Of a stretch of 24,133 bases of DNA, positions 2,786 to 24,133 are shown in pieces. Both the position numbers and the translations under genes were made by a program. A model generated the notes under the pieces. That model was not told the origin of the DNA, did not search any database, and was given only the letters and a program-made list of their open reading frames with translations. Every line of letters begins with the position of its first letter. Position 1 is the first letter of the stretch. Source of the DNA: a virus (lineage: Duplodnaviria > Caudoviricetes); IMG/VR virus record IMGVR_UViG_3300012173_000012, positions 1-24,133 of that record; one strand, given 5' to 3'.

Positions 2786-4843
2786 CTAATTTTCTAATAA
2801 CTCAGCCCAACACGATACTGTCAACATTCTTTGTTCCAAACAAGATATACCCCTATTAATTCTATTTTTGTATTCTCTTATTAACAAATTTAAATTTTTA
2901 TTGAATTTATTAAACTTTTTCATATCTATATTTTTTAATAAATTACCTATATTAATATTATTAATATCACAATTAGAATCTATATTAGAAAATATTAATA
3001 GTTTTATATTATTTAATTCAGATTTTTGTTTTTGAGTTAATGACCTTATATTCTTTGTTCCATTTTTAGCAAGAAACATATCGTCTACTATAATATCTAT
3101 TGATTTCAATGTATTTTCGCCAATTACATTATACATAGACAAGCTCTTATTGGTCCTCTGCTTCCTGGGGGATGTATCCTTAGTATTTGGCGGTCTTCCT
3201 GGGCCATTAATAGATGTTTGTCTCGGTTGATCGCCAAAATTGTTATCTCCACCACCAGATTGTTTAGCTGCTTCTAATGCCAATTGACCCTTCAATTGTT
3301 CTTCCATTACACTTATCGGTCTATAAAATGGATTAGCCTTCTCAAATACTGGTTGGTTAGAGTCTCTTATATCTTGCTCCAATTTCAGATTCTCTAGCTC
3401 AACAATAAAGTCTTGTCCAAAAACCTTATGTACTGTTTCTATTGAAATGATTCCCCTGTCTAAGAGTTGCACTATTAACTGTTTTTCAGCCGCCTCGTCC
3501 CTTAGTGACATTGTTGCAAAACTAATGCTTGGTATAGTTTTAAACCCCATAGCATCAGCAACCAAATGTAATTCATTATTTATCCAGTTTATACATTTAG
3601 ATCTTACATATTCTAATCTTTCAACTAATGTTTTTAACTGAACAAATGCGGATTGAGCATTTCTTGTGCTAGTTTCATTTCCGCCAACAAGAGAGGAAGG
3701 AATTCCAAGCCCACTTATAATGTCTTTATCTACAGATTGATACTTTTGAGGACCAAGAATTTTATCTGTTGGAGGATATTCAAATTTGAAATCTATTAAG
3801 TCGTTCCATATAATATCTAGCGCGCCACCGCCAACATTATTTGACAATATATCTTTTAATTTATTTATAGCAGCCTGAGTAGGTAATATTTTTTGCTCAG
3901 AATTACCTAGCTTCCACAATCTTACGGTGTTAATAACACCATCAAGAGCAGCCATATCAGCTTGCTTCATCTTATCTTTTAAAAGAACATCTTCTATAAC
4001 GCCATAAAGAAAAGGCGTTCCCCAATCTTCCCAATCATCCTTTTTGTAATAATCAATATAAATTCTTTCTTCATCCAATGCTATTAATTTATTGCCATTT
4101 TTTGCAGCTTCTATTATTTCTTTTGGCAGTTGTTGTATTAATTGTCTTTCAGCATCGGTTTTAGGATTTTTAATGGAAGACATCAAATCTTGATTAAGTC
4201 TAATGCCTAGCCTATTGCCACCAACGAACTTTCCAACAGCACCCCCTATTTTATCTACAACAACGGGAGATATAAAAGTGTATCTCCAGGGAATTTCTCC
4301 CTTTTTAATATTCTTCTTTTTTACTGTTAATTTCTCTGGATTTTCTCTAAATTTATCTTCTATTAAATAGTCTGGAATAAAATCATAAGCGCTTGTCATC
4401 TCTTTTATAACTGGCTTTGTTATGATTGCTGTTTTCCTACGAACTATTACATTGGCGTCTCTTAATATCAGTTTCATAAAATCATGGGCGCGGCTTTCCA
4501 GATTCACTTTTTTTGCCCATTTTTTATAAAAGAGTTCTTGCTTTTTATTTGGGTGTCTCAAATCTAGACCACTAGCGGCAAAATCTGTCATTAAATCAAT
4601 TATATTTCTAATTAATCCATTTTTTTTATATATGCCTTGGCAAGCCCTTATTATTTCATGATGATCAGTAGGAATAGTGTCTTCTGGTCGATGAAAATCT
4701 ATATCGAACCTATTTAGTCCTGGCCTAACGGTTTGAGACGTACTAGAGGCTTTAGCCGACCTTTTAACAACACAATCTTCTGGAACGTCATAGACATTTT
4801 TAGCTCCAGTAGATTTTTTATATAATGGCTTTTTATTTTCCAT
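2786..4843 (-). CDS. Portal protein
   Basis: 685 aa directly after the terminase. IYKKNGLIRNIIDLMTDF, YKKDDWEDWGTP, a helical core and a low-complexity GRPP tail. Confidence 0.8.
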   Translation of the reverse strand: MENKKPLYKKSTGAKNVYDVPEDCVVKRSAKASSTSQTVRPGLNRFDIDFHRPEDTIPTDHHEIIRACQGIYKKNGLIRNIIDLMTDFAASGLDLRHPNKKQELFYKKWAKKVNLESRAHDFMKLILRDANVIVRRKTAIITKPVIKEMTSAYDFIPDYLIEDKFRENPEKLTVKKKNIKKGEIPWRYTFISPVVVDKIGGAVGKFVGGNRLGIRLNQDLMSSIKNPKTDAERQLIQQLPKEIIEAAKNGNKLIALDEERIYIDYYKKDDWEDWGTPFLYGVIEDVLLKDKMKQADMAALDGVINTVRLWKLGNSEQKILPTQAAINKLKDILSNNVGGGALDIIWNDLIDFKFEYPPTDKILGPQKYQSVDKDIISGLGIPSSLVGGNETSTRNAQSAFVQLKTLVERLEYVRSKCINWINNELHLVADAMGFKTIPSISFATMSLRDEAAEKQLIVQLLDRGIISIETVHKVFGQDFIVELENLKLEQDIRDSNQPVFEKANPFYRPISVMEEQLKGQLALEAAKQSGGGDNNFGDQPRQTSINGPGRPPNTKDTSPRKQRTNKSLSMYNVIGENTLKSIDIIVDDMFLAKNGTKNIRSLTQKQKSELNNIKLLIFSNIDSNCDINNINIGNLLKNIDMKKFNKFNKNLNLLIREYKNRINRGISCLEQRMLTVSCWAELLEN

Positions 4844-4892: not shown

Positions 4893-6986
4893 TTAAATAA
4901 TCTCTCCTCTTTTAATTGCTACGAACGATGATTTTCCAGCAATCCAATCATCGCTATTTGCCATGTGTGCCATTCCGGGACCAACATATAGGCTTGTATC
5001 CTTTTTATTTTCTATTCTCCTAAAATTTCCTGGAACATCGGTATAATCTACCAAGACTGTATTGGAATTATCTAAGTCATGAATATATTTATGAATATAC
5101 AGAAGACTAGTATATCTATCTTTTCTTAGTCTTCCTTTTACCGATTTGCCCTCCGTGGCTCCGGTAGCTTTTGCCATAGTTGGAATATCAAACTTATCTT
5201 TTCCAGTAGCGGTTTCCATCTGTTGTATTGTGCATAATTCATTTTTAAGCTCTTCTATATTATGAACGCATTCCTCAAAGGTATCTATATATATACTTTT
5301 AGCCTTTTCTATCATTAATGCAGCTTGCATAACGACAGTATCGAAAGATGGAAACAATATCTTTTTGGTTTCTAAACTTTTATGAAGACAAATATTGCAG
5401 CTAGAATTAAATTCATTTGTTGGCTTAACAAGATTCAATATATGTGGACCATCTGTTTCTTCGTCTGTAGTGTTCATTTCATCTTCTTTTATAATCTCAT
5501 ATATAGGAAATTCTCCCAAATCTTTATTTATAGTTTTTTTGTCTCTTAACATTTCTGCCAATGGATACCCACATCCCTGACTATCCATTTCTATTCTTAC
5601 AGGAGAGAATAATTTGCATAATTTTCTTATATGAGAACAGCAATACGCATAGTAGTCACAGGCATCTATCAATCCAGCCTTTTTATTTTTATTAAATACA
5701 GTCTTATTGCAACTCCAACAATAAACTATTCTATAGTGATTTTTCCAAAACTCCAATATTACTATCCCAATATTATCTCTTTCAGCGCCAGGATCAATTC
5801 CTATGCCGTATTTCCTACCTTTAACTCCATTCATCATAGGGTTAAATTCTATTTCTCCGTATGGCGTGACAACAGGAGAATGTGGCTTTGAAGTACAAGA
5901 TTCTATCATACTTCTGGAAAAGAAACCATTTGAGTCCCTAACAAATATAGCCTGATATTCCATTAAATATATATTACTAGGTAACGTAGCTTTTGCATTA
6001 GCTAATTGTCTTTTATCTAGTAATCCATCTGGAAGATAGTCTGATGGGAGACGAATAATTGCATAGTCTTTGTAATTGAATTTATCTGGTACGTTTAATG
6101 GGCCTCCAAAAATTTCCGCAACCTTGCCCGGTTCTCCTCTGCTTTTAATAATGTCTTTCCATGTATTGAACTTAGTGGCAAAATGATTAAAATGATAATC
6201 AGCAGTCCCGGCACATATAATTTGATTGCCTTTAAGTATTTGATTATTTATACTTTGTATATGAGAACTTGGAATACCCATTTTTCTTAATTTTTTCTCT
6301 ATAGCTAATTTTCTTGCTTCTTCAACTGGGCTTTTAGTTGTAGCAGCGAAACCCCTCACCACAACATCAAATATATGTTGAGGAATTGATCCAAATTCGT
6401 CTGCAATAACACATGTCGCACGAAGACCTCTTATTCTACTCCCATCACCCAACGGAAGACTCGTGATAGTAGAATTACCTATTCTAAAATAACAACTATC
6501 CAACCCTTGTTTTGGGCCTATATTTTTACCACTACCAATTATACTTCTTAGTATTGGGGCGTCGTTCCATATATTTTGAATGTAATTAAAAACTAATTTT
6601 GATTGTCTAAGGCCAGCGCCAACTATTACTATTTTTGATCCAGGATCTAACAAAGCTTTAATTACAGAGTATACTGCTAATGTAAAGCTCTTTGATCCTC
6701 CACGACTGGCAACAAGCACGGGAAATGCAGTTTTCCAGAGAACTCTTAGGATAGCTGCCTGAATTGGAAATAGATCTATATTTAATATGGTCTTACAGGT
6801 CCATGAAATATAATCTACATTCAACATCTTGTCCACTATGTATTCATCAAAATTGCTATTTGATTCTTTAAGATCAGAAAAAATATGCTTATCTATTTTA
6901 GGAAGAGAATCCCTGTATGGGAAAAGATAAGAAAAATCACCCTCGTCAGTTTGCAAAAGATTATTTATTTGTTGAGAAATATTCAT
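4893..6986 (-). CDS. terL: Terminase large subunit
   Basis: Walker A-like ASRGGSKS, Walker B CVIADEFG, RGLRA, RNase H-type nuclease motif IGIDPG and C-terminal KDRYTSL. Confidence 0.92.
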   Translation of the reverse strand: MNISQQINNLLQTDEGDFSYLFPYRDSLPKIDKHIFSDLKESNSNFDEYIVDKMLNVDYISWTCKTILNIDLFPIQAAILRVLWKTAFPVLVASRGGSKSFTLAVYSVIKALLDPGSKIVIVGAGLRQSKLVFNYIQNIWNDAPILRSIIGSGKNIGPKQGLDSCYFRIGNSTITSLPLGDGSRIRGLRATCVIADEFGSIPQHIFDVVVRGFAATTKSPVEEARKLAIEKKLRKMGIPSSHIQSINNQILKGNQIICAGTADYHFNHFATKFNTWKDIIKSRGEPGKVAEIFGGPLNVPDKFNYKDYAIIRLPSDYLPDGLLDKRQLANAKATLPSNIYLMEYQAIFVRDSNGFFSRSMIESCTSKPHSPVVTPYGEIEFNPMMNGVKGRKYGIGIDPGAERDNIGIVILEFWKNHYRIVYCWSCNKTVFNKNKKAGLIDACDYYAYCCSHIRKLCKLFSPVRIEMDSQGCGYPLAEMLRDKKTINKDLGEFPIYEIIKEDEMNTTDEETDGPHILNLVKPTNEFNSSCNICLHKSLETKKILFPSFDTVVMQAALMIEKAKSIYIDTFEECVHNIEELKNELCTIQQMETATGKDKFDIPTMAKATGATEGKSVKGRLRKDRYTSLLYIHKYIHDLDNSNTVLVDYTDVPGNFRRIENKKDTSLYVGPGMAHMANSDDWIAGKSSFVAIKRGEII

Positions 6987-8394: not shown

Positions 8395-8395
8395 T

Positions 8396-11697: not shown

Positions 11698-11699
11698 TT

Positions 11700-12317: not shown

Positions 12318-12320
12318 TAT

Positions 12321-12656
12321 ATGGGACAAAAAGATAAGATATTATTCCTATTGAAAAGATGGAATGGTTTGCTGATAGGAGCGGCATCACAGACCGTATA
12401 CAATAAGGCTATAAGCAAGGATGGAAACAAAGATCTCGTTCCTAAAAATATTCACTGTATTATAGACACAATTGGGCATATAGATAATATAAAAAAGAAA
12501 ATAGTAGACATAATCCCTAAATGCTCCTTTATAGAAAAAGAATATAACCCTGGAATAGATTTAACTGATAATGACCTGACCGAACTATACATAAAGCATA
12601 ATAGAATATGTATAGAGAAGGTAATGAATTTAGTAAATACGAATAGAATAAAATGA
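12321..12656 (+). CDS. Hypothetical protein
   Basis: 111 aa ORF within the operon, ATGA overlap with the next gene. Confidence 0.6.
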   Translation: MGQKDKILFLLKRWNGLLIGAASQTVYNKAISKDGNKDLVPKNIHCIIDTIGHIDNIKKKIVDIIPKCSFIEKEYNPGIDLTDNDLTELYIKHNRICIEKVMNLVNTNRIK

Positions 12657-13120
12657 TATATTATGTAAAAGAAGATTTATTCAGTAAAAAAGCTGATATA
12701 CTAGTAAACACGGTAAATTGTGTCGGCGTTATGGGAAAGGGAATAGCTTTAGAATTCAAAAATAGAATGCCAAATCTATTCAAAGAGTATAAAATTGTAT
12801 GTAAAAATAAACAATTAAAGCCTGGAAATATATTTGTATACAGAGATATCTATAAAACAGTTATAAATATGGCTACAAAAGACCATTGGAGAAATCCTTC
12901 TCAATATTCTTGGATAGAACATTGTCTATTAGAAACAGCAAATTATATAATATTTAACTATCTAGATGACAAAGATATAAGAATGCCTTTACCCGGATGT
13001 GGTAATGGTGGATTAGATTCCAAAATTGTTTCTCTTATGATAGAAAAGACTTTTTCCGTAATTAAAAATAACATATACGTTTGTGTGTATAATCAACTGG
13101 TACACCCGCTCGGCCTCTGA
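12653..13120 (+). CDS. DarG-like macrodomain (ADP-ribosyl glycohydrolase)
   Basis: LVNTVNCVGVMGKGIALEFK, ATKDHWR and PGCGNGGL are characteristic of the DarG macrodomain. Confidence 0.85.
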   Translation: MIYYVKEDLFSKKADILVNTVNCVGVMGKGIALEFKNRMPNLFKEYKIVCKNKQLKPGNIFVYRDIYKTVINMATKDHWRNPSQYSWIEHCLLETANYIIFNYLDDKDIRMPLPGCGNGGLDSKIVSLMIEKTFSVIKNNIYVCVYNQLVHPLGL

Positions 13121-13157
13121 TTGAGTAAGTTATGCCAAACTTAGGGCGGGTTTTTTT
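13104..13157 (+). terminator. Intrinsic terminator-like structure with branched interior
   Basis: ACCCGCTC (13104-11) pairs with GGGCGGGT (13144-51), followed by a T7 run (13151-57). Confidence 0.6.
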
Positions 13158-13748
13158 ATGCGCACAGAAATGAAAAAAATGCTATATAAGATATTATCTA
13201 AAATAGTAACTTTCCTAGGAGATATCCATTTCTATGGATGGAAATATCCTTTTTGGTTTATTATAAAAGTACCAGAATTCAAACTGACCGGGAAACATTA
13301 CGAAGAAGTGAAATCTATTATATTACCAGGGGATATACTTCTAAGAAATACTGATAGATACCTTGACTCGTATATGATACCAGGATTTTGGACACATGCC
13401 GGTATTTATATAGAAAACAATAATGTAGTACATGCCATAAGCGATGGAGTTGTAGTAGAAGATTTGATAACTTTTATGAGAACAGACTATTTGTGTGTTT
13501 TAAGAGCATCAGAATCCCTAAGAGAAAGATGTCTAGCTCTGACACAAGAAATTGTTAATAAAGAATACGACTTTGTTTTTGATTTTAATGACACTAATAG
13601 ATTTAGCTGCACAGAATTAGTCTACTTTTGCTATCATTCAATAATTCCTGTAACAAAAAGATGGGGAAAGCTTATTGTTATTGGTGATGATATTTTTAAA
13701 TGCGACTCTCTATCTGTTGTTTACAATTCTTTGGAAAAAGTTTCCTAA
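13158..13748 (+). CDS. Permuted papain-like amidase (YiiX/YebB, NlpC/P60 superfamily)
   Basis: PGDILL, WTHAGIY (His), YDF and FSCTELV (Cys) in the permuted order. Confidence 0.85.
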   Translation: MRTEMKKMLYKILSKIVTFLGDIHFYGWKYPFWFIIKVPEFKLTGKHYEEVKSIILPGDILLRNTDRYLDSYMIPGFWTHAGIYIENNNVVHAISDGVVVEDLITFMRTDYLCVLRASESLRERCLALTQEIVNKEYDFVFDFNDTNRFSCTELVYFCYHSIIPVTKRWGKLIVIGDDIFKCDSLSVVYNSLEKVS

Positions 13749-14325
13749 TAGTTTCATAATAGTAAACATTAAGCCAAGCATCGTATAAGGCGTTGTGTTG
13801 ACCAAGTACGTGTACTGTTGGCTTATGAATTTGAATTTTGGCCTTTGCTAAATTCATGTTTATTCCTTTTGCAGCGTCAAATGGTCTTCCCTCAAGACTA
13901 GAGGTAAAGTAAGTTATAGAATTTAAATCTATACTACTATAATTAAAAGCATCATAAGTAAGCAAATCACTTACACGATTCTTTTTTAGAAATTCAATCA
14001 AAAATCTGACATCAAAAGATCCTATATTAAATCCCATAAAAGTAAAACAATGTTTATTAAATTGTCTAAATTCATGGTCACAGCATATTGAACTTAACCA
14101 TTGTTGAAAATTAACAGCAGTTTGTCTAGGATTATTTCCTTCTTTTTTAGATAGATCTATCTTGTTCATTTTAAGAGCCTCTGGTTGAACCAATAATTCA
14201 TGATAGTTTATTTTCTCATAGAAATGAATCCCAGATTCTAAATCGACAGCAGCTAATTGTAGGATTTCATGTTTTAAAGGATCAAGACCACTTGTTTCTA
14301 TATCTAATGAAATTATTCTAGTCAT
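13696..14325 (-). CDS. DEDDh 3'-5' exonuclease (DnaQ-like)
   Basis: LDIETSG, FNIGSFD, HNALYDA. Confidence 0.88.
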   Translation of the reverse strand: MTRIISLDIETSGLDPLKHEILQLAAVDLESGIHFYEKINYHELLVQPEALKMNKIDLSKKEGNNPRQTAVNFQQWLSSICCDHEFRQFNKHCFTFMGFNIGSFDVRFLIEFLKKNRVSDLLTYDAFNYSSIDLNSITYFTSSLEGRPFDAAKGINMNLAKAKIQIHKPTVHVLGQHNALYDAWLNVYYYETIRKLFPKNCKQQIESRI

Positions 14326-14821
14326 AAAAATATTTCTCCGAGTCTAATTCATGAAGCATCTCTTTTGGTAAATTCAAATCATATGGTAATCTACAACTTT
14401 TAGTATTAATAGGAATCAAATCAATTGTCTTACAGTTCTTCCAAGAATAAGGATTTATTTCATAAACTAGTTTGCCACACATAAAGGCGGAAAAAACTTC
14501 TGCATTTGCACCAGGGGACTTTCGCCATCCCTCTATACAATATACTTCCTTGCATCTATTGACAACAGCGTTTATGTCTGTTATCATACATTTCCAATGA
14601 GGCGTTCCAGCTTTTGTAACCTCTGCGGGATTAAAAACCGTCAATCCATTTTCTCTTAATTTTTTAGCTATTTCATTAAATATTGGGTAATTTAAGTCTT
14701 TTCTCCCAGTTATTGACATTGGGCCTGAGAGATATACATCATATTTTGTGTAAAAACGTTGCCATATTGTATAAAATGTCAACAAAATTGCACAAATAAT
14801 TGCTAAAATAATATAAATCAC
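14318..14821 (-). CDS. DUF4406 / nucleoside 2-deoxyribosyltransferase-like protein with N-terminal TM helix
   Basis: VYLSGPMS, NYPIF, VFNPAE and GWRKSPGANAE; the first 20 residues are hydrophobic. Confidence 0.75.
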   Translation of the reverse strand: MIYIILAIICAILLTFYTIWQRFYTKYDVYLSGPMSITGRKDLNYPIFNEIAKKLRENGLTVFNPAEVTKAGTPHWKCMITDINAVVNRCKEVYCIEGWRKSPGANAEVFSAFMCGKLVYEINPYSWKNCKTIDLIPINTKSCRLPYDLNLPKEMLHELDSEKYFYD

Positions 14822-15183
14822 GAATAATTCTCCATTTTTATTTTAATTTTACTTAAAATTTCATCAAAATCTGACTTTTCTGAATTGATTGGCAATTCTA
14901 AATGATTATGACCAATGTAAAAATCTGCACCAGATATTGTGTCTTTTATAAAAAATTTAAATTCTTTGCCAAAAATATTTCTTAAAAAATATGGAATACT
15001 ATGTTCTTTCCATAAGGCTTTATCACAGTAAAACTCTATGCTATAATCTTCTGATAATTCTAAAACAAATTCCTTAGCCCCATTTATTAATGAAAAAGTA
15101 GCATTGCTATCTTGATAATTATGATATCTATCTTCGTATATAATACTACGAAGATCCACACAAACAATATTTTTAGGTTTCAT
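14818..15183 (-). CDS. Degenerate HAD-like protein
   Basis: IVCVDLRSII, INGAKEFV and ADFYI follow small phage HAD proteins, but the second Asp of DxD and the DD motif are missing. Confidence 0.45.
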   Translation of the reverse strand: MKPKNIVCVDLRSIIYEDRYHNYQDSNATFSLINGAKEFVLELSEDYSIEFYCDKALWKEHSIPYFLRNIFGKEFKFFIKDTISGADFYIGHNHLELPINSEKSDFDEILSKIKIKMENYS

Positions 15184-16387
15184 TTATAGATCCATCGCAA
15201 ATTATAATAGAACATTCCTTGCCCTTAGACACCCTCTCAATCCACACTTGCCCATCGTGTTTCTGTGCCATTTCAGCAACCATCTTCAAATTCTTTTCGT
15301 CCAGTAAAGAACCATCACGAACAAGTAATATTTTAAGCTTAGGGTTCATGGCCAAACCCATTGCAACCGATATCTTAACTTGTTGTGCAGAAGAGCATTG
15401 TTCAAAAGGAATTTCGCCGAACATAACTTCATCTTCCGTAAAGCCTAAGCCTTTAATTGGGAACTTTGCATTTTCTAAAAGATCTTGTTTTTCTTTATTT
15501 ATAGATTCTATTCTATCGGTTAAGTCTTTCGACTTGATTCTCAAGTCATTTAATTCATTCCCTAATTCGTTTCGCTTTTGGTTTTCTCTAACCTTTTTAT
15601 TGTTAGATTCACAAGAACTAATTTGTGATTCAATATTATTTATATGAATAAATTCTAAAGCTTTTAAAGACTCTTTATCTTTATCTATTTGAGTTTTTAA
15701 ATTTTTCTTTTCATCTTGTAATTTTTTAATTTCCTTGTCTATCCATTCTAGCCTATTATTTTTCTTGTTTACAGAATCATTTAATGTTTCTATATTTCTA
15801 TTATTTTCAATAGCATCAGTTAATTGTTTCGACAAATCTGTCATAGAGATTTCTTGTTCTGGAACACTATCGTGTTCTGGAAGACTCTCAAATTGTGCCT
15901 TCAATTCCTTGCCGCGTCGATTTATATCTGTTCTCTCGTCAAAAACTTTCTTGTATTCTTTATCAAGATTTGTAAAATCCAGGCCGACTACTTTTTTCAA
16001 GGTTTCTAATTTTTTCTTCGAATCCATTCTACAAAATTCGAGGGGATCAAAAGATAAGTCACCAACTAACTTGTCAAGCATTGCTTGAGGAGAAGAGTAT
16101 GACGCTCCTTCTTTACTTTTTACAACAAGATTTGTTCCGCTTTTGGTAAAAGTTCGTGTCACTACAATGTCACCAAGATCCAAAACAATCTTTGCCTTTT
16201 CTTGGCCGTCACGGATTGGCTTACTTGGAATTCCCTTAGTCCCAGCTAAAGCATATTCGATAGAGTCAAGGATAGAACTCTTTCCGGCTTCGTTGTCTCC
16301 ACCAATAATTATAGTAGAGCCATCTGGCTTTATTGAGACGGCTTTTAGCTTTTTAACATTTTCTGCTTCTAGCGATACGATTTTCAT
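15173..16387 (-). CDS. SMC/RecN/Rad50-like coiled-coil ATPase
   Basis: Walker A GDNEAGKSS, central coiled coil, signature-like SSAQ and Walker B/D-loop LLVRDGSLLD. Confidence 0.85.
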   Translation of the reverse strand: MKIVSLEAENVKKLKAVSIKPDGSTIIIGGDNEAGKSSILDSIEYALAGTKGIPSKPIRDGQEKAKIVLDLGDIVVTRTFTKSGTNLVVKSKEGASYSSPQAMLDKLVGDLSFDPLEFCRMDSKKKLETLKKVVGLDFTNLDKEYKKVFDERTDINRRGKELKAQFESLPEHDSVPEQEISMTDLSKQLTDAIENNRNIETLNDSVNKKNNRLEWIDKEIKKLQDEKKNLKTQIDKDKESLKALEFIHINNIESQISSCESNNKKVRENQKRNELGNELNDLRIKSKDLTDRIESINKEKQDLLENAKFPIKGLGFTEDEVMFGEIPFEQCSSAQQVKISVAMGLAMNPKLKILLVRDGSLLDEKNLKMVAEMAQKHDGQVWIERVSKGKECSIIICDGSINET

Positions 16388-16587
16388 TCTAATTCCTTTA
16401 ATGCTTTTTCTAAATCTTTTAATTCATTTCCGAATGTTTCACCAGTATACGGAAAACCATGATTATGGGCCATGACAAAAACAGAACTATACTCTGGAGA
16501 CTTTATAATCTTGTTTAATTTTTCTGCAAGAAGATTGGCAGACTCATGTAATTTTTTAACTTCAGATAATTTGTGTCTATAATCCAT
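16384..16587 (-). CDS. Hypothetical protein (start reassigned to ATG 16587)
   Basis: TAATG coupling with the upstream gene and a GGAG SD. MDYRHKLSEVKKL...HGFPYTGETF. Confidence 0.65.
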   Translation of the reverse strand: MDYRHKLSEVKKLHESANLLAEKLNKIIKSPEYSSVFVMAHNHGFPYTGETFGNELKDLEKALKELE

Positions 16588-16874
16588 TATGGCCACTCCC
16601 TGTAATAGACGGCACCATATCCATTTGATTCTTCTATAACTTCGCAAGCATTCATACCAAACTTTAAGGCTAATCGTTTTGCTATCTTTATACAATCAGA
16701 ACTATATACGTCTTTGTTTCCAATTATATCCTCTATCTCATTATAAAATTCTGAAGAGTTTATAGAACTTTGATCTTCTTCGTTTTTTAACGAAAGCCAA
16801 CATCTAACTACAAAACTATCATGAGAATATCTTGAACTAAATTTGAATCTTTGCATTTGTTCAAAAACTTCCAT
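16587..16874 (-). CDS. Hypothetical protein
   Basis: 95 aa, coupled to genes on both sides. Confidence 0.65.
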   Translation of the reverse strand: MEVFEQMQRFKFSSRYSHDSFVVRCWLSLKNEEDQSSINSSEFYNEIEDIIGNKDVYSSDCIKIAKRLALKFGMNACEVIEESNGYGAVYYREWP

Positions 16875-17167
16875 TATATATCCCCATTCTCTTTTATTTT
16901 TGTGTCCTCATAAGGAGCTACATATCGTCTATAAAATTCCATTTTTACACAATCAAGAACGCCCATGATTTCGTTATAAAATCTATATCCGGGCTTAAAG
17001 GCTACATTCCTTTTTGTTGCTACTTCTTTCAATGTTTTAGAAAAAACATAATTTAAATTCCCGGCAAAATCTTCTGGGTGAATCATCTTAACATCATTTA
17101 ATTGATTAATCAAATCATATAAAATAATCTTCCAGTCATCTCTTTGTGATTGTTTTATATATGGCAT
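16874..17167 (-). CDS. Conserved phage protein (DUF6899-like)
   Basis: MPYI...GNLNY...EFYRRYVAPYEDTKIKENGDI is a widespread phage family. The family name is from memory. Confidence 0.65.
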   Translation of the reverse strand: MPYIKQSQRDDWKIILYDLINQLNDVKMIHPEDFAGNLNYVFSKTLKEVATKRNVAFKPGYRFYNEIMGVLDCVKMEFYRRYVAPYEDTKIKENGDI

Positions 17168-17169
17168 TT

Positions 17170-17382
17170 TTATTGACCTTCATTTACAACAACCTCTAGT
17201 TCTTCATTAGTAAAATACTCTGGACGACCAACTGGAGGTCTGCCCTTACCGAAGGAAAGATGGACTCTTGTATTGTCTTCTTCTTTAAAACTCTTTGCAA
17301 CACCAACACGGCCAACTAGTTTTGGACAAGCATCGCACTTTACTACTTTGTAACTACCACCTAAATTAAAACTTGAAACCAT
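17170..17382 (-). CDS. Small SH3/KOW-like beta protein
   Basis: AGGAG SD; VGRVGV...VHLSF...YFTNEELEVV. Confidence 0.6.
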   Translation of the reverse strand: MVSSFNLGGSYKVVKCDACPKLVGRVGVAKSFKEEDNTRVHLSFGKGRPPVGRPEYFTNEELEVVVNEGQ

Positions 17383-17393
17383 ATCTTTCTCCT

Positions 17394-17780
17394 TTAAATT
17401 TCACTAGCAACTAAATCAACTTTATCTACCAACTCTAAACCACCAAAAAAAGCCATTTCACCATTATTTAAACAACAAGCATTTCTGTCTCCGGTCTTCA
17501 TTAAATAACAATCTAAATCTACTTTAAATGTTTCTCCATTCTTTAGTTTTTCAAATTGTACTTTCTTGCTGGGGATTTTTCCATATACAATTACAACATT
17601 TATTTCATCTATTATATCGTGATCATTATAGTAATCTAATTTGTTATTAGTCAAAGAAAAAACGTTACAATTATTTTCTTCTTCTATTTTTACAAAAACC
17701 TCTTCGCCCCTTCTAAAGGTTGTTCCTTCTTTTATTTCATGGAAGAATAGATCTTTTGTTTTTGGTTCAATTATTCTCAT
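17394..17780 (-). CDS. Hypothetical protein made of two tandem ~60 aa domains
   Basis: FHEIKEGTTF..VFVK..NVFSL and FEKLKNGETF..YLMK..NACCL. Confidence 0.7.
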   Translation of the reverse strand: MRIIEPKTKDLFFHEIKEGTTFRRGEEVFVKIEEENNCNVFSLTNNKLDYYNDHDIIDEINVVIVYGKIPSKKVQFEKLKNGETFKVDLDCYLMKTGDRNACCLNNGEMAFFGGLELVDKVDLVASEI

Positions 17781-17781
17781 T

Positions 17782-18027
17782 TTACCAACCTCTTTTATTT
17801 TTTATTTCATTAACAATTGCTATGACATTATCACAGGCATTATATTTCTTTATTTCTTCTACCCCATACCCTATTATTTCTTCTCCTTCCTTAACAGGAA
17901 GGTTTGCACGACAACAAAAATCTAATTCTTGTGAGGCCTCTAATAACTGGTCCATTAAGTCGTTACAAGAGTGGATATTTGGCTTTTTATATAAATCTGC
18001 TCTTTTAGGGTTTTTAAGTTTTGCCAT
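17782..18027 (-). CDS. Hypothetical protein
   Basis: AAGGA SD, within the operon. Confidence 0.65.
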   Translation of the reverse strand: MAKLKNPKRADLYKKPNIHSCNDLMDQLLEASQELDFCCRANLPVKEGEEIIGYGVEEIKKYNACDNVIAIVNEIKNKRGW

Positions 18028-18040
18028 TTTGTTTTTCCTT

Positions 18041-18379
18041 TTATGTTACCAGTTTTGGTCTAAATATAGTTGAATCATCAAGGGCTGACTCTCTTATCTT
18101 ATTCCAAACTTCATGGCTCTCGTCTACTTCGCCAAATTCTTTTACTAGGTCAAAAGACATATAGTTTTCTTTACAAGTAGCATACAAGGGATTAAGTTTC
18201 GTTATATCTACCGGAAGCAATGATCGTCTCTGATTGGCCCCCTCTCCTTCTGGCTTCCCTTGCATACAGAAGATTGTTCTTGTAGATCTTATAAAGTCTC
18301 CTCTGTCCATTTTTGTCAAATCAACAGCGGTTTCAATCATTCTCGTTGTTCCGTCTACTAAGTCTACTCTATACCACAT
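18041..18379 (-). CDS. Hypothetical protein, first gene of the leftward operon
   Basis: AAAGGAG SD and upstream GGTATAAT on the minus strand (18400-18407). Confidence 0.7.
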   Translation of the reverse strand: MWYRVDLVDGTTRMIETAVDLTKMDRGDFIRSTRTIFCMQGKPEGEGANQRRSLLPVDITKLNPLYATCKENYMSFDLVKEFGEVDESHEVWNKIRESALDDSTIFRPKLVT

Positions 18380-18739
18380 TTGATTCTCCTTTCTACTTAA
18401 TTATACCTAGCTGAGCCTGCTATTTTTACATAATTCGAAATTAATTGGCCCCCGGTTTTTTTGGGAAGTTTAGAAATCTTAAAAACGATTTGTTCTTTTG
18501 TCCCGGTTTTTGGGGGCCGGTTGCGTCTAAGCCCCCCGCGATTTTCGGACCCTATATCGCCCTTCCGTTATCGGACATAAAACCCCCCCACCCTATCGGA
18601 CCTTCTAAGCTCTTATAACCATACCTTATTTATCAGACTATCTTGCGTGACGACGCAAGCGTTATCAGACCATTTAATTATCAACACCTTCCGATAACTT
18701 ACCTATCTTATCACACCTAAAATATTTTCTTCTTCCCCC

Positions 18740-18768
18740 TTGCATTCCGCCCGATGGTATGCTATCAT
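18740..18768 (+). promoter_or_regulatory. sigma70-type promoter
   Basis: TTGCAT-17 bp-TATCAT with extended -10 TG, followed by a GGAGG SD. Confidence 0.75.
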
Positions 18769-18789
18769 TGTATTGGAGGAAATGAAACA

Positions 18790-18873
18790 ATGTTTACCCT
18801 AGCTATCATCGGTTTTGGTTCGATAACGGTTGGCGTACTATGGGCGCTTGCAATTAAAGCGGACCTTCTCTAA
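18790..18873 (+). CDS. 27 aa single-TM microprotein
   Basis: GGAGG SD; MFTLAIIGFGSITVGVLWALAIKADLL. Confidence 0.6.
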   Translation: MFTLAIIGFGSITVGVLWALAIKADLL

Positions 18874-18884
18874 GGAGCGATAAC

Positions 18885-19010
18885 GTGACAACCATCCGAG
18901 AATCCGCCTATCGAATTATCAGACGTTTCATCGTGTTATCAGACGGAACTACGATAGCATACTGGGACGTTGAAGAGACGGCGACCGATAACAAAGGAGA
19001 CTTATCGTGA
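18885..19010 (+). CDS. 41 aa hypothetical microprotein
   Basis: AAGGAG SD and GTG start; MTTIRESAYRIIRRFIVLSDGTTIAYWDV...; GTGA overlap with the next gene. Confidence 0.6.
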   Translation: MTTIRESAYRIIRRFIVLSDGTTIAYWDVEETATDNKGDLS

Positions 19011-19237
19011 CGATCTTTCCAGGTGACACTATCGGACTATTCGGCGAGATTAGCGGACATCGCGTCGAAGAAGTTATCGGACCAATGTTCGATGTTCGTG
19101 CGAAGTATTTATTGGACGATGGACGTGTCGTTCAATTATCGGACATTCACTCGCATCGTACCGAAACCGGACAGGACACTATAACCGAAACCAGATACGA
19201 TGGAGTTATTCGGACCATCGACCAGGACGACCGATAA
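19007..19237 (+). CDS. Hypothetical early protein
   Basis: AAAGGAG SD, GTG start, 76 aa. Confidence 0.7.
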   Translation: MTIFPGDTIGLFGEISGHRVEEVIGPMFDVRAKYLLDDGRVVQLSDIHSHRTETGQDTITETRYDGVIRTIDQDDR

Positions 19238-19249
19238 GGAGCAGATAGC

Positions 19250-19486
19250 ATGACCGAGAAAAACACTCATTCCTTCCCCGACCGTTTGAAGTTGCACTTG
19301 AACGAGAAGTTATGGGAATGCGTCCGAGAAGTATCGGATATATCGGACTTATACTTAATGTCCTATATCTGTCAAAGCGGAAACGAGCGTTATCGGATAT
19401 ACACGGACCCAGGATATTATCGGTCTGCGCAACGAGCGATAACCCACGAATTACCGGACCTTCGTCGACTCGCGGGAATGTCCTAG
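19250..19486 (+). CDS. Hypothetical early protein
   Basis: TAAGGAG SD, 78 aa. Confidence 0.7.
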   Translation: MTEKNTHSFPDRLKLHLNEKLWECVREVSDISDLYLMSYICQSGNERYRIYTDPGYYRSAQRAITHELPDLRRLAGMS

Positions 19487-19499
19487 AAGGAGAAGAGTT

Positions 19500-19682
19500 A
19501 TGGGAATGAGCGAAGGGGAAAAACTTTATCGGAAGTACAGGGACGATGGAATTATTATCGTCCACAGGAATGAAGTTTTCGGACGCGCAGCCGATGGTAT
19601 CTTGGTCCGAATAGGAGATACCGATAACATGGAATGCGTGTTCCTATATCTCGAAGACCGAGGCGGTCCCGATAACTGGTAG
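19500..19682 (+). CDS. Hypothetical early protein
   Basis: AAGGAG SD, 60 aa. Confidence 0.7.
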   Translation: MGMSEGEKLYRKYRDDGIIIVHRNEVFGRAADGILVRIGDTDNMECVFLYLEDRGGPDNW

Positions 19683-19692
19683 GAGCGATAAC

Positions 19693-19803
19693 ATGGAACA
19701 AGTTTTCTCGGACCTAGTGGCGAATATCGGGCATGTCGTTTATGTTCCGATAATCGTGGGAACCCTGACTATATTATCGGTCGTCCTCTGCAAGGGCCGA
19801 TAA
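19693..19803 (+). CDS. 36 aa single-TM microprotein
   Basis: AGGAG SD; MEQVFSDLVANIGHVVYVPIIVGTLTILSVVLCKGR. Confidence 0.6.
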   Translation: MEQVFSDLVANIGHVVYVPIIVGTLTILSVVLCKGR

Positions 19804-19814
19804 AGGAGAAGCGT

Positions 19815-20084
19815 ATGATTCTAGGACGTAAACGTACGGGTCAAAAATTTCCGGTCCTATTTCCGCGCGGAATGCGTCCGGTCGTCTTTTATCAGACGGA
19901 AAAAGTGGGCCTGTATTATCACGCCACGATTGTTAGGGTCGATAATCGGCGTGGTATTACATGGAATAAAGAATTTAGGGGAGAAACTGGAATCGGCTTG
20001 ACAACCGAGAAGGCGCTTGCTATGCTTAGACAACGATTGACCGAGACAGGATACACGTATGACGTACGGGAGGAGGTGAAGTGA
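19815..20084 (+). CDS. Hypothetical early protein
   Basis: AAAGGAG SD, 89 aa. Confidence 0.65.
   Translation: MILGRKRTGQKFPVLFPRGMRPVVFYQTEKVGLYYHATIVRVDNRRGITWNKEFRGETGIGLTTEKALAMLRQRLTETGYTYDVREEVK
19998..20026 (+). promoter_or_regulatory. sigma70-type promoter inside the 19815 ORF
   Basis: TTGACA-17 bp-TATGCT with extended -10 TG. Confidence 0.65.
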
Positions 20085-20281
20085 TACTTTACCTGACGTA
20101 TAAGCGCCGAAAATGGTTCGCCTATTCCGTGAAGCCGATAAGGTGGAATAGCGCGGCCGATCCTGATACGGCGTTATCGGGCCTGATAGAAGGATTGAGG
20201 AATATCGGTTGTAAGGCGCTTGTGTTGGGCGTTTGTCGACCGAGCAGGGAATTCTTGGAAGGAGAAAAAAATGAGAATTGA
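20081..20281 (+). CDS. Hypothetical early protein
   Basis: GGAGGAGGT SD, GTG start in a GTGA overlap. Confidence 0.65.
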   Translation: MILYLTYKRRKWFAYSVKPIRWNSAADPDTALSGLIEGLRNIGCKALVLGVCRPSREFLEGEKNEN

Positions 20282-20546
20282 AACGGTGAAGGTATCGGAC
20301 CTGAATATCGTGGTCGCCAAGCGCGGCCGAAAACCTGATCCTGAAGTTATCGCGCTTGTCAATTCGGTCCGAATTGCGCCGGATGGTACTGGTATCCGAG
20401 TTATGGCGCGCTCGGAACAGGAAGCCGATAAGTATTCGGCTAAGATTCGCGCCGCGGTCAAGAAGGCAGGATTTTCGGTTATTATCGGGCGCATCGCGGA
20501 GTCGTCCGATATTCTTGTTACGAAGAAAATTCCTGTTGACGGTTGA
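20271..20546 (+). CDS. Small basic putative DNA-binding protein (start reassigned to ATG 20271)
   Basis: AAGGAG SD; MRIETVKVSDLNIVVAKRGRKPDP... has an AT-hook-like KRGRKP. Confidence 0.65.
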   Translation: MRIETVKVSDLNIVVAKRGRKPDPEVIALVNSVRIAPDGTGIRVMARSEQEADKYSAKIRAAVKKAGFSVIIGRIAESSDILVTKKIPVDG

Positions 20547-20571
20547 CGTATCGCGCCGCGAGCGCTATACT
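20543..20571 (+). promoter_or_regulatory. sigma70-type promoter
   Basis: TTGACG-17 bp-TATACT, followed by a 5' hairpin CGCGCCTA/TGGGCGCG (20586-20604). Confidence 0.8.
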
Positions 20572-20634
20572 GGTATGATCCGAGTCGCGCCTATTGTGGG
20601 CGCGTGTGTTGAAACGACCGAGAAGGAGAATTTT

Positions 20635-21087
20635 ATGGCGAATCAGGTACTGTCCGAGAAGAAGAAGGTCTCCATTGACGAGGCAGGGTTTCGGAATGCG
20701 TCCAATTGTTATGGGCGCGACCGGAAGATTGTTGACGCTATCGTGTCTATCGGACGCGCGAAGGGCGATCCGGTTTCCGCGCTGAATTCCGCCGTATCGG
20801 TCCTGGCAAAAATGCGAGGCCTCGATACGCACGCGCAGCGTATGCTTAAGGCCGTTATGGGTCTTGACGAAAATGTCGATCCGGTCAATGCGTACGCGCT
20901 CGCGCAGGAAACTATCGGCCTGATTGTCGAATTCTCGGAGCGCGGGTCGACGTACACTCCTGCGGCGCGTCTCGGTTTCGGTTCTGATCCTTCCCATATT
21001 ATCGCGCGGAAGATTCTCGGAACGGATACCAGCGCCGCGAAGGTCCGCGCTACTTTCGCCAAGGTCTCGACGATTCCTGTGGCTTAA
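20635..21087 (+). CDS. 150 aa helical hypothetical protein (start reassigned to ATG 20635)
   Basis: AAGGAG SD, downstream of the 20543 promoter; MANQVLSEKKKVSIDEAGFRNAS...STIPVA. Confidence 0.75.
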   Translation: MANQVLSEKKKVSIDEAGFRNASNCYGRDRKIVDAIVSIGRAKGDPVSALNSAVSVLAKMRGLDTHAQRMLKAVMGLDENVDPVNAYALAQETIGLIVEFSERGSTYTPAARLGFGSDPSHIIARKILGTDTSAAKVRATFAKVSTIPVA

Positions 21088-21939
21088 TTCGCGTCAATGT
21101 TCGGCGCGAACGCACCCTGGGATTGTTGCCAACGGGTCTCAGGGTGCGCTGCGCTGTACGTCGACGCTATCGGGTAACTACCGAATAAATAGGCGCATAA
21201 TATAGCGCGCCGGCGAACGTGCGGAAGCCGAAGTAACAAGTTTATTATCGGTATGTAGCGGGGTTTCGATTCGTTATCGGGCGACCGCTGGGGAGGGGAG
21301 AATCGTAGGGAAAAACGTTGCGCGTTTTAACGGTCGAATTGAGCGCTAAGGAAAGCGCACAATAGGTCCAGCGCAACGGAATAACCTACGGTTGACAATC
21401 CGCCCTATCGTGGATTAGACCACGTATTCGACTACGGAACGGAATAGGAAAGAAGCGATAGAATAACCTGACGATATATCGAAGCGGACTAGAAAAACGG
21501 ATCGACTATCCGTTGTCGCGCACGATATACAAACGGCAGGGTAAAATTATCGCGTTAAATTCCTGTTCTAAAAGCGCACGAAGCGCTAACGTAGGCCGAT
21601 AATCGCGCAAGTGATATTCCTTCTTCACGCCATAGGTCCGTCAATATCGCATTAAAAGAAGATCCGAAAATGGTCAAAAGCGGCTTGTCACCGTTATTAG
21701 GTCGTTCAGGGTTTTCGCGTTATTCCCCTAAGTGAAAATGCCGCGCCCGATAGGGAGAGCGGGAACGATAACTGTAGCGCGCGATGGTTCGGACAATTCC
21801 GAAGGAAGCTCCATCGTTAAATAACCCCTGAATAAACAAGCAATTATTTGGGGGAATTCAATAGTTCAATTCATTTGTCACACCTACGCTAATTAGCGGC
21901 CCAAAACGGATGCAAGTCCGCGATTATTTGGGGTTTTTT
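21088..21939 (+). ncRNA. Putative large structured non-coding RNA (~850 nt), family unassigned
   Basis: No credible ORF. Many nested helices with G-U pairs on the + strand, GCAA tetraloops, A-rich linkers, and a terminal stem plus T6 (see findings). Confidence 0.7.
21900..21939 (+). terminator. Terminal stem and U-tract closing the putative ncRNA
   Basis: CCCAAA/TTTGGG encloses CGGAT-GCAA-GTCCG, then TTTTTT at 21934-39. Confidence 0.5.
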
Positions 21940-22119
21940 ATGGTGTGATTGTTTCACGTAGTATAAAGTATCCTGCGCCTAATTAAAAGCAGGGGACGAT
22001 GGAAAAATTGTATAGTCAAGAAATTGGCTTGCAATAATACGCCCTAAGTCGGGTTCATTCCGACCTGGGAAATGGTGGTTCAATTCCGCCCGTGGAACAT
22101 TGTCTAAAAGGAGAAAGAA

Positions 22120-22341
22120 ATGAGAATTGAGTATGGCAGTCAGAAATCCAGGATTATGTTTGATGAGCTTCATGAAGGAGATTGTTTCATTTTTGGGGAT
22201 TATCACTATGTAAAGAGTAGAAAGGCTCTTTCATGGCCTCAAGTAAATGCTTTCAATCTGAGTCTTAATATACCCGTGCAATTCGAAGACAGCCACGTCA
22301 CAGTAAAGCCAGTCACAGCAGTAATCCAAATTCACCCATGA
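22120..22341 (+). CDS. Hypothetical protein, single-domain paralog of 17394-17780
   Basis: AAGGAG SD; FDELHEGDCF..YVK..NAFNL. Confidence 0.7.
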   Translation: MRIEYGSQKSRIMFDELHEGDCFIFGDYHYVKSRKALSWPQVNAFNLSLNIPVQFEDSHVTVKPVTAVIQIHP

Positions 22342-22368
22342 TATAAGGGTGATATCACTTTGATATCA
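22339..22368. promoter_or_regulatory. Three TGATAT(A/C)A boxes at an 11-bp period, operator-like
   Basis: TGATATAA at 22339, TGATATCA at 22350 and TGATATCA at 22361. Confidence 0.5.
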
Positions 22369-22503
22369 TTGGGGTGTTAAAATGGATAAGGGTCGGAGAG
22401 AGGTTAAATAGGTAATCAAACAACATTTCTGAAACACGATTTCTTGATTACTCTATCTGCCTTATGGGTTGTACTTGTTGGGGAGTAGTAAAAGGAGTTA
22501 ATA

Positions 22504-22650
22504 ATGAAATGCCCAAAATGCGGTCTAAAAATGGGCTATCAAGAATTCGAAGACGAAGATGGTTGGAATTACCAGTGGGTCTGCGCAGGCACAGAATCCC
22601 AAGATGGCTGTTGGAATTACGTGGACTTAGAGAAACCACTAGAGAATTAA
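22504..22650 (+). CDS. 48 aa zinc-ribbon protein
   Basis: AAGGAG SD; MKCPKCGLKMGYQEFEDEDGWNYQWVCAGTESQDGCWNY. Confidence 0.7.
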   Translation: MKCPKCGLKMGYQEFEDEDGWNYQWVCAGTESQDGCWNYVDLEKPLEN

Positions 22651-22740
22651 CAACTTTGCTTTTCTTTTTCACGAATTCTATTTTCCTTTCTTTGATCGCA
22701 GTCTAATGGGTAGTTTGATACCTGGAAAGGGGTAAATCAT

Positions 22741-22932
22741 ATGGTCGTGCCAAAGTACAAGGCAATTAGGCTTCTGTTGAACCAAGCAGGGTGGTCCGAG
22801 GAGAAGTTAAACCGCTTTATTGAGCTAAATCCAAGGGTTTGGCTAACTGTTCTCAATTCCCCAATCGAAGACGCGGTGGATAGTATGTTCGTTTTTGATG
22901 CCCATATCAATCACGAATTGTGTCAAGATTAA
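22741..22932 (+). CDS. Hypothetical protein
   Basis: AAGGGGGT SD, 63 aa. Confidence 0.65.
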   Translation: MVVPKYKAIRLLLNQAGWSEEKLNRFIELNPRVWLTVLNSPIEDAVDSMFVFDAHINHELCQD

Positions 22933-23174
22933 GAGAGGGTCTTTTCTCTTTCAAGATTTCTATCTCCTCTCTGTGTCCTTCTTGTGTGTTGTTAGTAATA
23001 TGAAGTAATCAAATGGGGGATTAAATGCCTATCATCATTGCCTTCATCATCCTTTGTATTGCTATCTGCCATTTTTGGCTAAAAGACAGGGGAGTTTAGC
23101 AACCTGCTTTTCTCTTTTACGAATTCTATCCCTTCTCTCTTTGTGTTCCTGTGTGTGGTGTTATGGAGTGCAAT

Positions 23175-23366
23175 ATGCGTTTATCACGCAAAAAACGACG
23201 AAAGTCCCGCGCAAATCTGTATTTTCAACATCGTAAATGCCGAACGTGCGGCATAGTCAACTGCGCGTCTCACCATTGCGTCCAAAACGTCGAATGCACT
23301 TCTTGTTTCTGGGAGGGTTGTGGGTGTAAGCTGGTCAACGAAAAGTGTCCTTCTTGTGGGAAATAG
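23175..23366 (+). CDS. Basic Cys-rich zinc-finger protein (start reassigned to 23175)
   Basis: GGAG SD; RKKRRK followed by CRTC, CASHHC, CTSC and CPSC. Confidence 0.65.
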   Translation: MRLSRKKRRKSRANLYFQHRKCRTCGIVNCASHHCVQNVECTSCFWEGCGCKLVNEKCPSCGK

Positions 23367-23371
23367 CTATC

Positions 23372-23695
23372 ATGAACAATTTCATGTCGGGATTTGTGGC
23401 GGGGCTTGTTGTTGAGTTTGTGGTTATCCTTGTCATTTTTTGGAAGATGACGAAAACCAATAGGAAAAGCCAAATGGCGATGAAAAATCTGCGATCTTTC
23501 CGTTTTGGTCCATTCTGGTTTTACAGAACAGATACAGGGTGTCTCAATTTCGTAATTTCCAGAAATAGGAAGAAGTTGGCGGGGTTCACTTTCTACCAAT
23601 ACAAAAAGAACGAGGACAGAAATCATTCTGGGATCGAAGTGTCTGTTAAGATGGGTAATTTCTATCGCGTTTTCAACATCAAAAGCCCATTCTAA
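23372..23695 (+). CDS. Membrane-anchored hypothetical protein
   Basis: N-terminal TM segment FVAGLVVEFVVILVIFW followed by a basic domain. Confidence 0.6.
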   Translation: MNNFMSGFVAGLVVEFVVILVIFWKMTKTNRKSQMAMKNLRSFRFGPFWFYRTDTGCLNFVISRNRKKLAGFTFYQYKKNEDRNHSGIEVSVKMGNFYRVFNIKSPF

Positions 23696-23712
23696 ACAGC
23701 GAAAGGCCAAAA

Positions 23713-23928
23713 ATGAAAAACAAAAAGGGTTGGTCAGCGGATATTGGCGAATACGAAAAGGGAATCAACATATCCTTGCCTGGCGCTAGAAACCTAGCAG
23801 AAGCCCACCAAATGGCTTTTTCAAGGGTTTATGAATGCGACCATTGCCAAGACCCGTTCGTAGTCCAAATCTATAGAGACGGGAAAATAGTGTGGGATTT
23901 TACGAATTTCCAGCCTTTCGATTATTAG
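23713..23928 (+). CDS. Hypothetical protein
   Basis: 71 aa, AAAGG SD. Confidence 0.65.
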   Translation: MKNKKGWSADIGEYEKGINISLPGARNLAEAHQMAFSRVYECDHCQDPFVVQIYRDGKIVWDFTNFQPFDY

Positions 23929-24023
23929 GGGAAAAATCAAATAAATACAATCACGATTTGTGGGTTCCTACGAATCATTTGTAGGGTTTCGTCGGGTCTT
24001 TATGGGCAAAAAGGGAGATTGTT

Positions 24024-24133
24024 ATGTTGAAATTTGATTTCGTTTGTCCCGGAGAAACGTTCATTGTAGACAATCCGGGTAACGAAACACCAGAAGTCCA
24101 AAGAACCGTTTTCGTAAAAATGAATAGCGATGA
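24024..24133 (+). CDS. Partial CDS, probable further paralog of the 17394/22120 domain
   Basis: GGGAG SD; MLKFDFVCPGETFIVD...VFVKMN runs off the right edge. Confidence 0.6.
   Translation, partial: MLKFDFVCPGETFIVDNPGNETPEVQRTVFVKMNSD

Follow-up and report, generated by a model that had tools for sequence, protein, structure and literature searches.

An island of XerC-arm-like half-sites in a large tailed phage, possibly a landing pad for host XerC

Hijacking of bacterial Xer recombinases is known from filamentous phages and satellites, which act through one or two full dif sites. Unloading of Smc-ScpAB by XerD at the XDS sites of Bacillus subtilis was reportedly described by Karaboja in 2021. 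Among tailed phages, T7 has arrays of short repeats beside its terminal repeats and T5 has its first-step DNA. In general, the genome end on the upstream side of the terminase is the last part to be packaged and the first to be injected. The mobile elements known as IMEX (CTXphi, VGJphi, TLCphi) carry dif-like DNA and rely on the host Xer proteins, the TLCphi site combining a good XerC arm with a degenerate XerD arm according to the account in PMC4246890. XerC arms listed in PMC2731167 contain GTCCGATAA in Anaeromyxobacter and Myxococcus, GTCCCATAA in Geobacter and Desulfovibrio, and GTCCTATAA in Syntrophus. XerD bound at several XDS sites is described as unloading Smc-ScpAB in B. subtilis (PMC11894783, PMC10945525). 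Here we analyse positions 1-24,133 of IMG/VR record IMGVR_UViG_3300012173_000012 (Caudoviricetes), a stretch of 24,133 nucleotides referred to as the window, which is part of a large, uncultured tailed phage and holds a 3.2-kb island of small genes densely occupied by a word that resembles one arm of dif.

The word is the degenerate 9-mer TTAT[C/A/G/T][G/A]GAC, with TTATCGGAC as its lead form. Read on the opposite strand it is GTCCGATAA, which matches the XerC arm of deltaproteobacterial dif, and the word is very probably a Xer arm. XerC likely binds the copies. The complete chain, in which the island would be a landing pad for host XerC at the entering genome end, is put forward tentatively, with somewhat less than even confidence. 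The elements concerned are:

18520..18550, plus strand: boundary element made of a GGTGCG-like word, a C run and then TTTTCGGAC (by eye and pattern), a candidate end or cut region
18542..21753, both strands: array of 45 XerC-arm-like half-sites (matrix scan)

A preliminary description of this DNA had singled out the hexamer TATCGG, which is the core of the full word. Direct counting finds 34 hexamers in 18569-21752 (22 TATCGG and 12 CCGATA) together with five TTATCAGAC, every one at the position originally given. The remainder of the window has five copies (3314, 15514, 2199, 11437, 15367), one more than the approximately four reported for its first 18.5 kb, and there are indeed none past 21760. 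The enrichment first put at about 20-fold over about 1.6 expected copies is real, its size depending on the background chosen. The 34 copies seen compare with 1.8, 4.0 and 4.9 expected from 300 shuffles of 18501-21800 that preserve mono-, di- and trinucleotide composition, respectively (maximum 11), and with 20.6 +/- 3.2 (maximum 32) when 4-mers are preserved. Redrawing codons from island usage with the proteins kept fixed (60 runs; one open reading frame (ORF) interval is not a multiple of three) left 2.8 +/- 1.5 motif-matrix sites in seven ORF intervals (maximum 7) against 24 seen, and 3.1 copies of TATCGG within ORFs against 17. Enrichment therefore persists under dinucleotide and codon models and the motif is much rarer in the rest of the window, the two points on which the preliminary description had made its claim depend. 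Sites occupy five of the six frame/strand registers, and 25 of the 45 fall within listed ORF intervals. The word is imposed on the DNA whatever the frame rather than caused by the proteins, as had been proposed, and it behaves like a protein recognition code for the segment.

The island also differs from its surroundings in composition, with 47-54% GC against mostly 26-34% in the left flank and 40-42% in the right, a CpG observed/expected ratio of 1.66 versus 0.70 and 0.88 in the flanks, and sharp edges near 18.5 and 21.8 kb. A tandem-repeat origin is ruled out by the absence of any tandem array in the island. These strong differences in GC and CpG, together with the occurrence of the 9-mer in unrelated repeats, might point to an artefact, the word arising from local composition by mutation or the island from a chimeric join. 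The excess survives di- and trinucleotide as well as synonymous shuffles, however, and the word is conserved in diverged relatives whose island DNA has little similarity. Moreover, one 168,571-bp contig, which may be the window's own source, is identical to the window over 8000-24133, and contigs from other runs bridge both island edges. The island is not a chimera, and the artefact explanation, largely refuted already, is hardly credible. Four of the five listed pieces from RNA runs lie within 19001-22042; they are contigs from one run and no evidence of transcription.

Pooled over five islands, the leading 9-mers are TTATCGGAC (51 copies, where the flanks would predict 0.2), TTATAGGAC (24), TTATCAGAC (20), TTATGGGAC (12), TTATAAGAC (8) and TTATTGGAC (5). 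Full islands hold 30-77 sites each. In that of the window, 30 of the 45 matrix sites read as TTATCGGAC on the plus strand and 15 on the minus strand. Density is highest near the left, non-coding edge, and strand polarity across successive thirds of the five islands is 107:28, 74:27 and 24:24. Spacing has only a loose mode at 25-27 bp, with no regular iteron spacing and no evident helical phasing, and none of 50 divergent neighbour pairs forms a symmetric arm-to-arm site at 6-base spacing.

A matrix derived from phage islands only ranks GTCCGATAA, GTCCTATAA, GTCCCATAA and GTCTGATAA at positions 1, 2, 7 and 8 of 262144 9-mers; PMC2731167 presents XerC arms whose inner nine letters are the first three of these words. 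Gammaproteobacterial XerC arms, XerD arms and the DnaA box all rank 3466 or worse with the same matrix. Conversely, a matrix built from 10 host dif-like sites alone finds 24 sites in the window island, at 7.1/kb versus 0.26/kb outside. The 11-bp XerC arm is present in the window, its outer letters being more variable there than in relatives. Recognition by a host factor was the best of the options first listed, the match to the XerC arm of dif having been missed. Two others gained no support. The suggested likeness to the DnaA box is not upheld: the box scores -1.0 bits with the phage-derived matrix, ranking 6092 of 262144, and the DnaA C-terminal domain PF08299 was found in none of the five relatives searched. 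For a Chi-like signal, the word is not enriched in either of two planctomycete chromosomes (31 copies versus 33 for the control, and 17 versus 19), the phage's host possibly being another organism.

The arm followed by 6 bases and TTATG is found, mostly once, in 98 of 151 Planctomycetota genomes, the phylum of the Thermoguttaceae genome G040, against 18/151 for a control pattern; in a deltaproteobacterial phylum 38 of 61 genomes have it, against 13/61 for the control. KOPS words converge on the dif-like site in four of five genomes checked. The analysis yields a Planctomycetota dif-like consensus, ACGTC[C/T]GATAA-N6-TTATGTT, from ten loci, for a phylum in which an earlier dif survey reports no prediction from the one genome covered (PMC3025954). 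The arm narrows the range of hosts but does not name one, because it occurs in Planctomycetota, a deltaproteobacterial phylum and Bacillota. Among 12 other phage records carrying the word, the commonest 11-mer, ACGTCCGATAA (49 of 191), is identical to the host arm, and TTATG stands exactly 6 bases after 5/221 arms, compared with 0-1 at 15 other spacings. Five of these 12 records each contain a single full dif-like site, but three of the five are related, so the cases are not all independent.

The window itself has half-sites only, its best two-arm score being 11.4 versus 26-35 for host sites, and no full dif was found in it. No tyrosine recombinase was found in the complete relative G005, nor in the complete genomes G021, G025 and G028, so that the host enzyme would be the only reader available in all cases. 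Half-sites devoid of XerD arms, at 30-77 per island and with the same word in unrelated phages, are also what a XerC sponge would look like, the amplified arms soaking up host XerC, blocking dimer resolution and cell division and thereby prolonging infection. Such a sponge could lie anywhere, whereas the array is single in G005, sharply bounded, graded in density and biased in strand, which makes this function unlikely. Convergence of KOPS words on the island was not found, with only three such words in G005.

Conservation was followed with the small terminase candidate as family marker. The packaging genes of the window are:

2786..4843, minus strand: portal protein (family match)
4893..6986, minus strand: terminase large subunit (TerL), nearest among cultured phages to Bacillus phages Stahl, Staley and Basilisk, 23-26% identity
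7489..8394, minus strand: candidate terminase small subunit (TerS), assigned by position only

The TerS candidate has no family match and no similarity to Basilisk gp31, found at the equivalent place. It retrieved 14 loci, two of them the same phage; eight of the other 12 were taken whole and four are short contigs. Five of the eight contain the whole island; the sequences of two others stop 219 and 277 bp past the boundary, and that of the last stops short of it. An island with the same word and polarity is hence present in 7/7 relatives that reach far enough, a search for analogous islands in related phages having been suggested in the preliminary description. At least five further family members came from motif scans; they are not independent evidence on presence, because the scan selected for the motif. 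The circular 167.6-kb record G005 has exactly one island. Except for one close pair, the islands share short DNA matches only and have few genes in common. Their constant traits are the word, the boundary element, the density gradient, the strand bias and a homologue of the gene at 20635. The boundary element occurs in 8/8 oriented family records reaching it, the first motif site follows it by 17-22 bp in 6/6 full islands, and it lies 10.1 kb upstream of the TerS candidate in the window and 14-19 kb upstream in seven relatives.

Arrays of the same word are also present, among the matches listed, in smaller phages not matched by the window terminase: G011 and G021 (TerL phrog_979), G018 (same portal family as G011/G021), G025 (phrog_5989) and G019 (phrog_38). 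In these phages the arrays stand on either side of a 2.5-4.5 kb block of small genes, itself upstream of the packaging genes, and in G011 2,876 bp of this block are repeated at both contig ends. A record titled as a Heimdallarchaeota chromosome (L397:5209-7770) holds the boundary and island of the window phage family. An N gap links them to archaeal-looking genes, probably through a scaffolding error, and the gene next to the boundary is similar to the N-terminal part of the TerS candidate (30% over 71 aa, E 1.6e-6).

The 9-mer could alternatively be a packaging signal read by the small terminase or a related helix-turn-helix protein, its likeness to dif being due to chance. Every family seen has the island upstream of its terminase genes, the L397 boundary gene resembles the N-terminus of the TerS candidate, and the short-repeat arrays of T7 offer a parallel. 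Against this, the word is common to four terminase families that show no detectable similarity to one another's query, and the range of variants, the AC flank on the 5' side and the 6-base spacing of the five full sites all agree with dif. The reading is quite improbable. A link of the island to a genome end is plausible, if indirect. A terminase-specific code, one of the options in the preliminary description, is weakened because phages with dissimilar terminases carry the same word.

The link to a genome end draws on the position of the island and of contig ends. In Basilisk and Staley the annotated terminal repeats lie upstream of TerL, at distances of 12.6 and 13.5 kb, that of Basilisk called from a read pile-up as stated in PMC5000459, and the island position resembles these ends, the two phages being distant relatives (TerL 23-26%). 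Both have a low-complexity block with a different word just inside the opposite (matching) end. Among the matches listed, non-tandem motif clusters lie at most 600 bp from a contig end in 8/35 linear contigs versus 1.6 expected; the count excludes five circular records and every tandem-like cluster. On balance we favour the sharp left edge being a physical end or the border of a terminal repeat, the island then being packaged last and entering first with host-type promoters.

Just inside the right terminal repeat, these two cultured phages have a block of alternating purines and pyrimidines (TACATA, CATATA), in the last 1.2 kb of Basilisk (L170) and the last 1.5 kb of Staley (L172). The final 2.9 kb of Staley and of Slash (L171, L172, L499) each hold three copies of TTCCTATAA, a word similar to the Bacillus-type XerC arm, with one copy inside the terminal repeat; these copies are 3/6 and 3/4 of the distinct sites. 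This sparse cluster is a weak, post hoc lead in cultured phages.

In the mechanism proposed, host XerC would load on the ~45 weak XerC-side half-sites, without a XerD arm, along the first 3 kb. The sites, densest and co-oriented at the edge, would form a landing pad on the probable first-injected genome end. The XerC coat would shield or hold the entering end and help the two ends to meet and to join into a circle or concatemer. The job would be mainly non-catalytic in the window phage family, while smaller phages with one full dif-like site inside the array could recombine there. A broader and more doubtful version is one of convergence, in which many tailed phages that infect planctomycetes, deltaproteobacteria and neighbouring groups, though unrelated, would have paved their first-injected DNA with XerC half-sites. 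The chromosome-segregation recombinase would there serve as a coat that caps and joins the ends, fends off end-sensing nucleases or SMC-type defences and makes the genome circular, and the 20635 protein would be its phage-encoded partner.

Several observations weigh against a XerC landing pad at the entering end. Concerning the word, the window copies are more degenerate than those of relatives, with only 9 exact 9-mers and mismatches mostly in the last letters. Nor is the word confined to Xer sites, because unrelated repeats, both coding linkers and intergenic ones, contain the 9-mer as well. The window shows no enrichment of XerD arms, TTATG stands 6 bases after 1/500 family arms, no more commonly than at other spacings, and an exact full site was found in 0/5 further relatives; recombination at the family sites is thus unsupported. 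The reader need not always be the host's, because three of the five relatives searched (G012, G013, G016) encode a XerC/XerD-like protein of their own, scoring below curated cut-offs. On the host side, the arm with N6 and TTATG occurs in 9/41 Bacillota against 13/41 for the control, most of five genomes have no local GC-skew switch at the planctomycete site, and a search for hosts or prophages with the TerS candidate matched 0/401 Planctomycetota genomes. As to the genome end, assemblies break at repeats too and contig ends can stem from neighbouring tandem repeats. Depth over the island is not doubled, being modestly and inconsistently higher (assembled contigs only, depth 2-16). The Bacillus-type arm is not clustered at the ends of Basilisk, SPO1 and phage K. 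Finally, the cumulative GC-skew minimum falls within 350 bp of the boundary in 6/6 full islands.

The position of the island at this minimum would suit an origin and two inward-reading arms equally well. The island could then be a replication origin or a zone of SMC unloading and segregation, with Xer as a non-catalytic roadblock like XerD at the B. subtilis XDS, where it unloads SMC from its binding sites. However, genes read leftward to the left of 18.4 kb and rightward inside the island, and the skew switch coincides with this switch in gene direction. The precedent concerns XerD, whereas the arm found here is the side assigned to XerC in PMC2731167. The absence of a DnaA domain from the five relatives and of iteron spacing likewise speaks against an origin, which appears unlikely as the function of the island.

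The other features of the island are:

19007..19237, plus strand: small ORF, 76 aa, homologues in the G001 and G003 islands, no Pfam/PHROG family
19250-19486, 19500-19682, 19815-20084, 20081-20281 and 20271-20546, plus strand: run of small ORFs with strong ribosome-binding sites
19998..20026, plus strand: sigma-70-like promoter match, 10 of 12 (consensus match only)
20543..20571, plus strand: sigma-70-like promoter match, 10 of 12 (consensus match only), upstream of conserved gene 20635
20635..21087, plus strand: conserved island gene, 150 aa, with a YTP..GFGSD motif and homologues in relatives
21090..21800, no strand: non-coding distal part of the island, the CpG excess stopping near 21800

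The five small ORFs of 19250..20546 have no homologue in the islands of five relatives, and the four of them scanned gave no Pfam/PHROG family. Homologues of the 20635 gene are found in the islands of G001, G003, G004 and G005 and in G012, G014, G016 and G020 (69 profile hits). Its product is predicted to be all-helical (pLDDT 89 for the model of the G005 homologue); it gave no trusted family, solved-structure, fold or Atlas match (best Z 3.3; best score 0.78), which does not show a new fold, and a locus search with 20635 as query found none. About 1 kb of non-coding DNA after the conserved gene is visibly alike in G012, G014 and G020 (L323:18460-19700, L327, L334:15850-17000), without an Rfam match, and is a candidate structured RNA or cis element. 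No structured RNA of Rfam was matched within the window.

Since 25 of the 45 sites are inside ORF intervals and sites surround the promoter matches, the array might instead be an early-gene switch, where the host Xer, or the XerD-like protein that three of five relatives encode, binds across early genes as a transcription roadblock. The sites are densest at the non-coding edge, however, and in the smaller phages they cluster at borders of gene blocks and not at promoters. We consider this very unlikely and retain, tentatively, the landing pad for host XerC.

Beyond phages, a GTDB scan for triple motifs found at least 120 loci, mostly tandem or coding repeats. The 9-mer appears as repeated SDK-coding linkers in bacterial genes, ahead of a predicted C-terminal DNA-binding part, and as intergenic repeats in Bacillaceae (L422, L445, L395, L458 group). 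In four planctomycete-type records and one other (L414:5823-6060, L393:5058-5310, L362:5807-6060, L405, L462) 3-4 direct copies of the 9-mer and an integrase-like gene come after a tRNA gene; the arm-site-like 9-mers at these loci are the host XerC arm. G040:C1 has one group at 4747196-4747248 and a second group of three at 4803028-4803059, 56 kb on and in the same orientation. The tRNA-linked groups resemble the arm sites that flank an integrated element on either end.

The window also encodes an ERCC4-type nuclease. Between the terminase genes and the island, a rightward block at 9435-13748 codes for an N6/N4 DNA methylase, a NadR-like kinase, ClpP, a macro domain and a permuted papain-like amidase. 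The segment 9732-12133 is passed over by one contig of run X3. In family members (L473, L474, L475) the XerC/XerD-like recombinase gene adjoins a ClpP-like gene. The large terminase frame is 1111-1132 aa long or split in G020:C1 (3575-6970), G016:C1 (126214-129546) and G012:C1 (129162-132492), which suggests insertion of an intein or intron.

Compared with dif, the island shares the inner nine letters of the XerC arm, as seen in the deltaproteobacterial sites shown in PMC2731167 and in the Planctomycetota dif-like site. The dif site is intergenic, single-copy and has one such arm, whereas the island has dozens, without the 6-base core and XerD arm, inside coding DNA and in a phage. IMEX carry one or two attP and integrate at dif; here the carrier is a large tailed phage whose array spans 3 kb, the window contains no full site, and no integrated copy at dif was seen. 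An attP with both arms was not found in the family, and a TLC-type degenerate site could still fit. As for integration at dif, the sole match of the TerS candidate in a prokaryote record is L397, with its join across an N gap; as for an integrase of its own, G005 has none and G012, G013 and G016 have the Xer-like gene. If the array were accessory DNA for recombination, the island would count as an IMEX variant. With the XDS, compared by description only, it would share the use of several Xer-binding sites for a job other than dimer resolution. Those are few, chromosomal and bound by XerD, while the phage island has XerC-side arms, 30-77 in 3 kb. With the terminal repeats and end blocks of tailed phages such as Basilisk and Staley it has in common a place upstream of the terminase, a sharp boundary and small genes with host-type promoters reading away from it. 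It differs in that its word is a host recombinase arm running through genes, where Basilisk and Staley have the alternating block. The island falls outside the definition of dif, and it is not counted here as an IMEX, an XDS set or a mapped terminal repeat.

The literature searched, in which subscription journals are mostly not covered, gave no description of Xer half-site arrays in tailed phages. The landing-pad reading is directly testable with cloned DNA in Myxococcus or a cultured planctomycete, and the arm sequence is a possible host marker for uncultured phages. If the reading is true, it would give a handle on end protection and joining after injection in large phages, a step poorly mapped for those with terminal repeats. 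Set beside the full dif sites of filamentous phages and satellites, a multi-kb array of XerC arms alone, in coding DNA and across unrelated packaging motors, would then be a different use of the recombinase.

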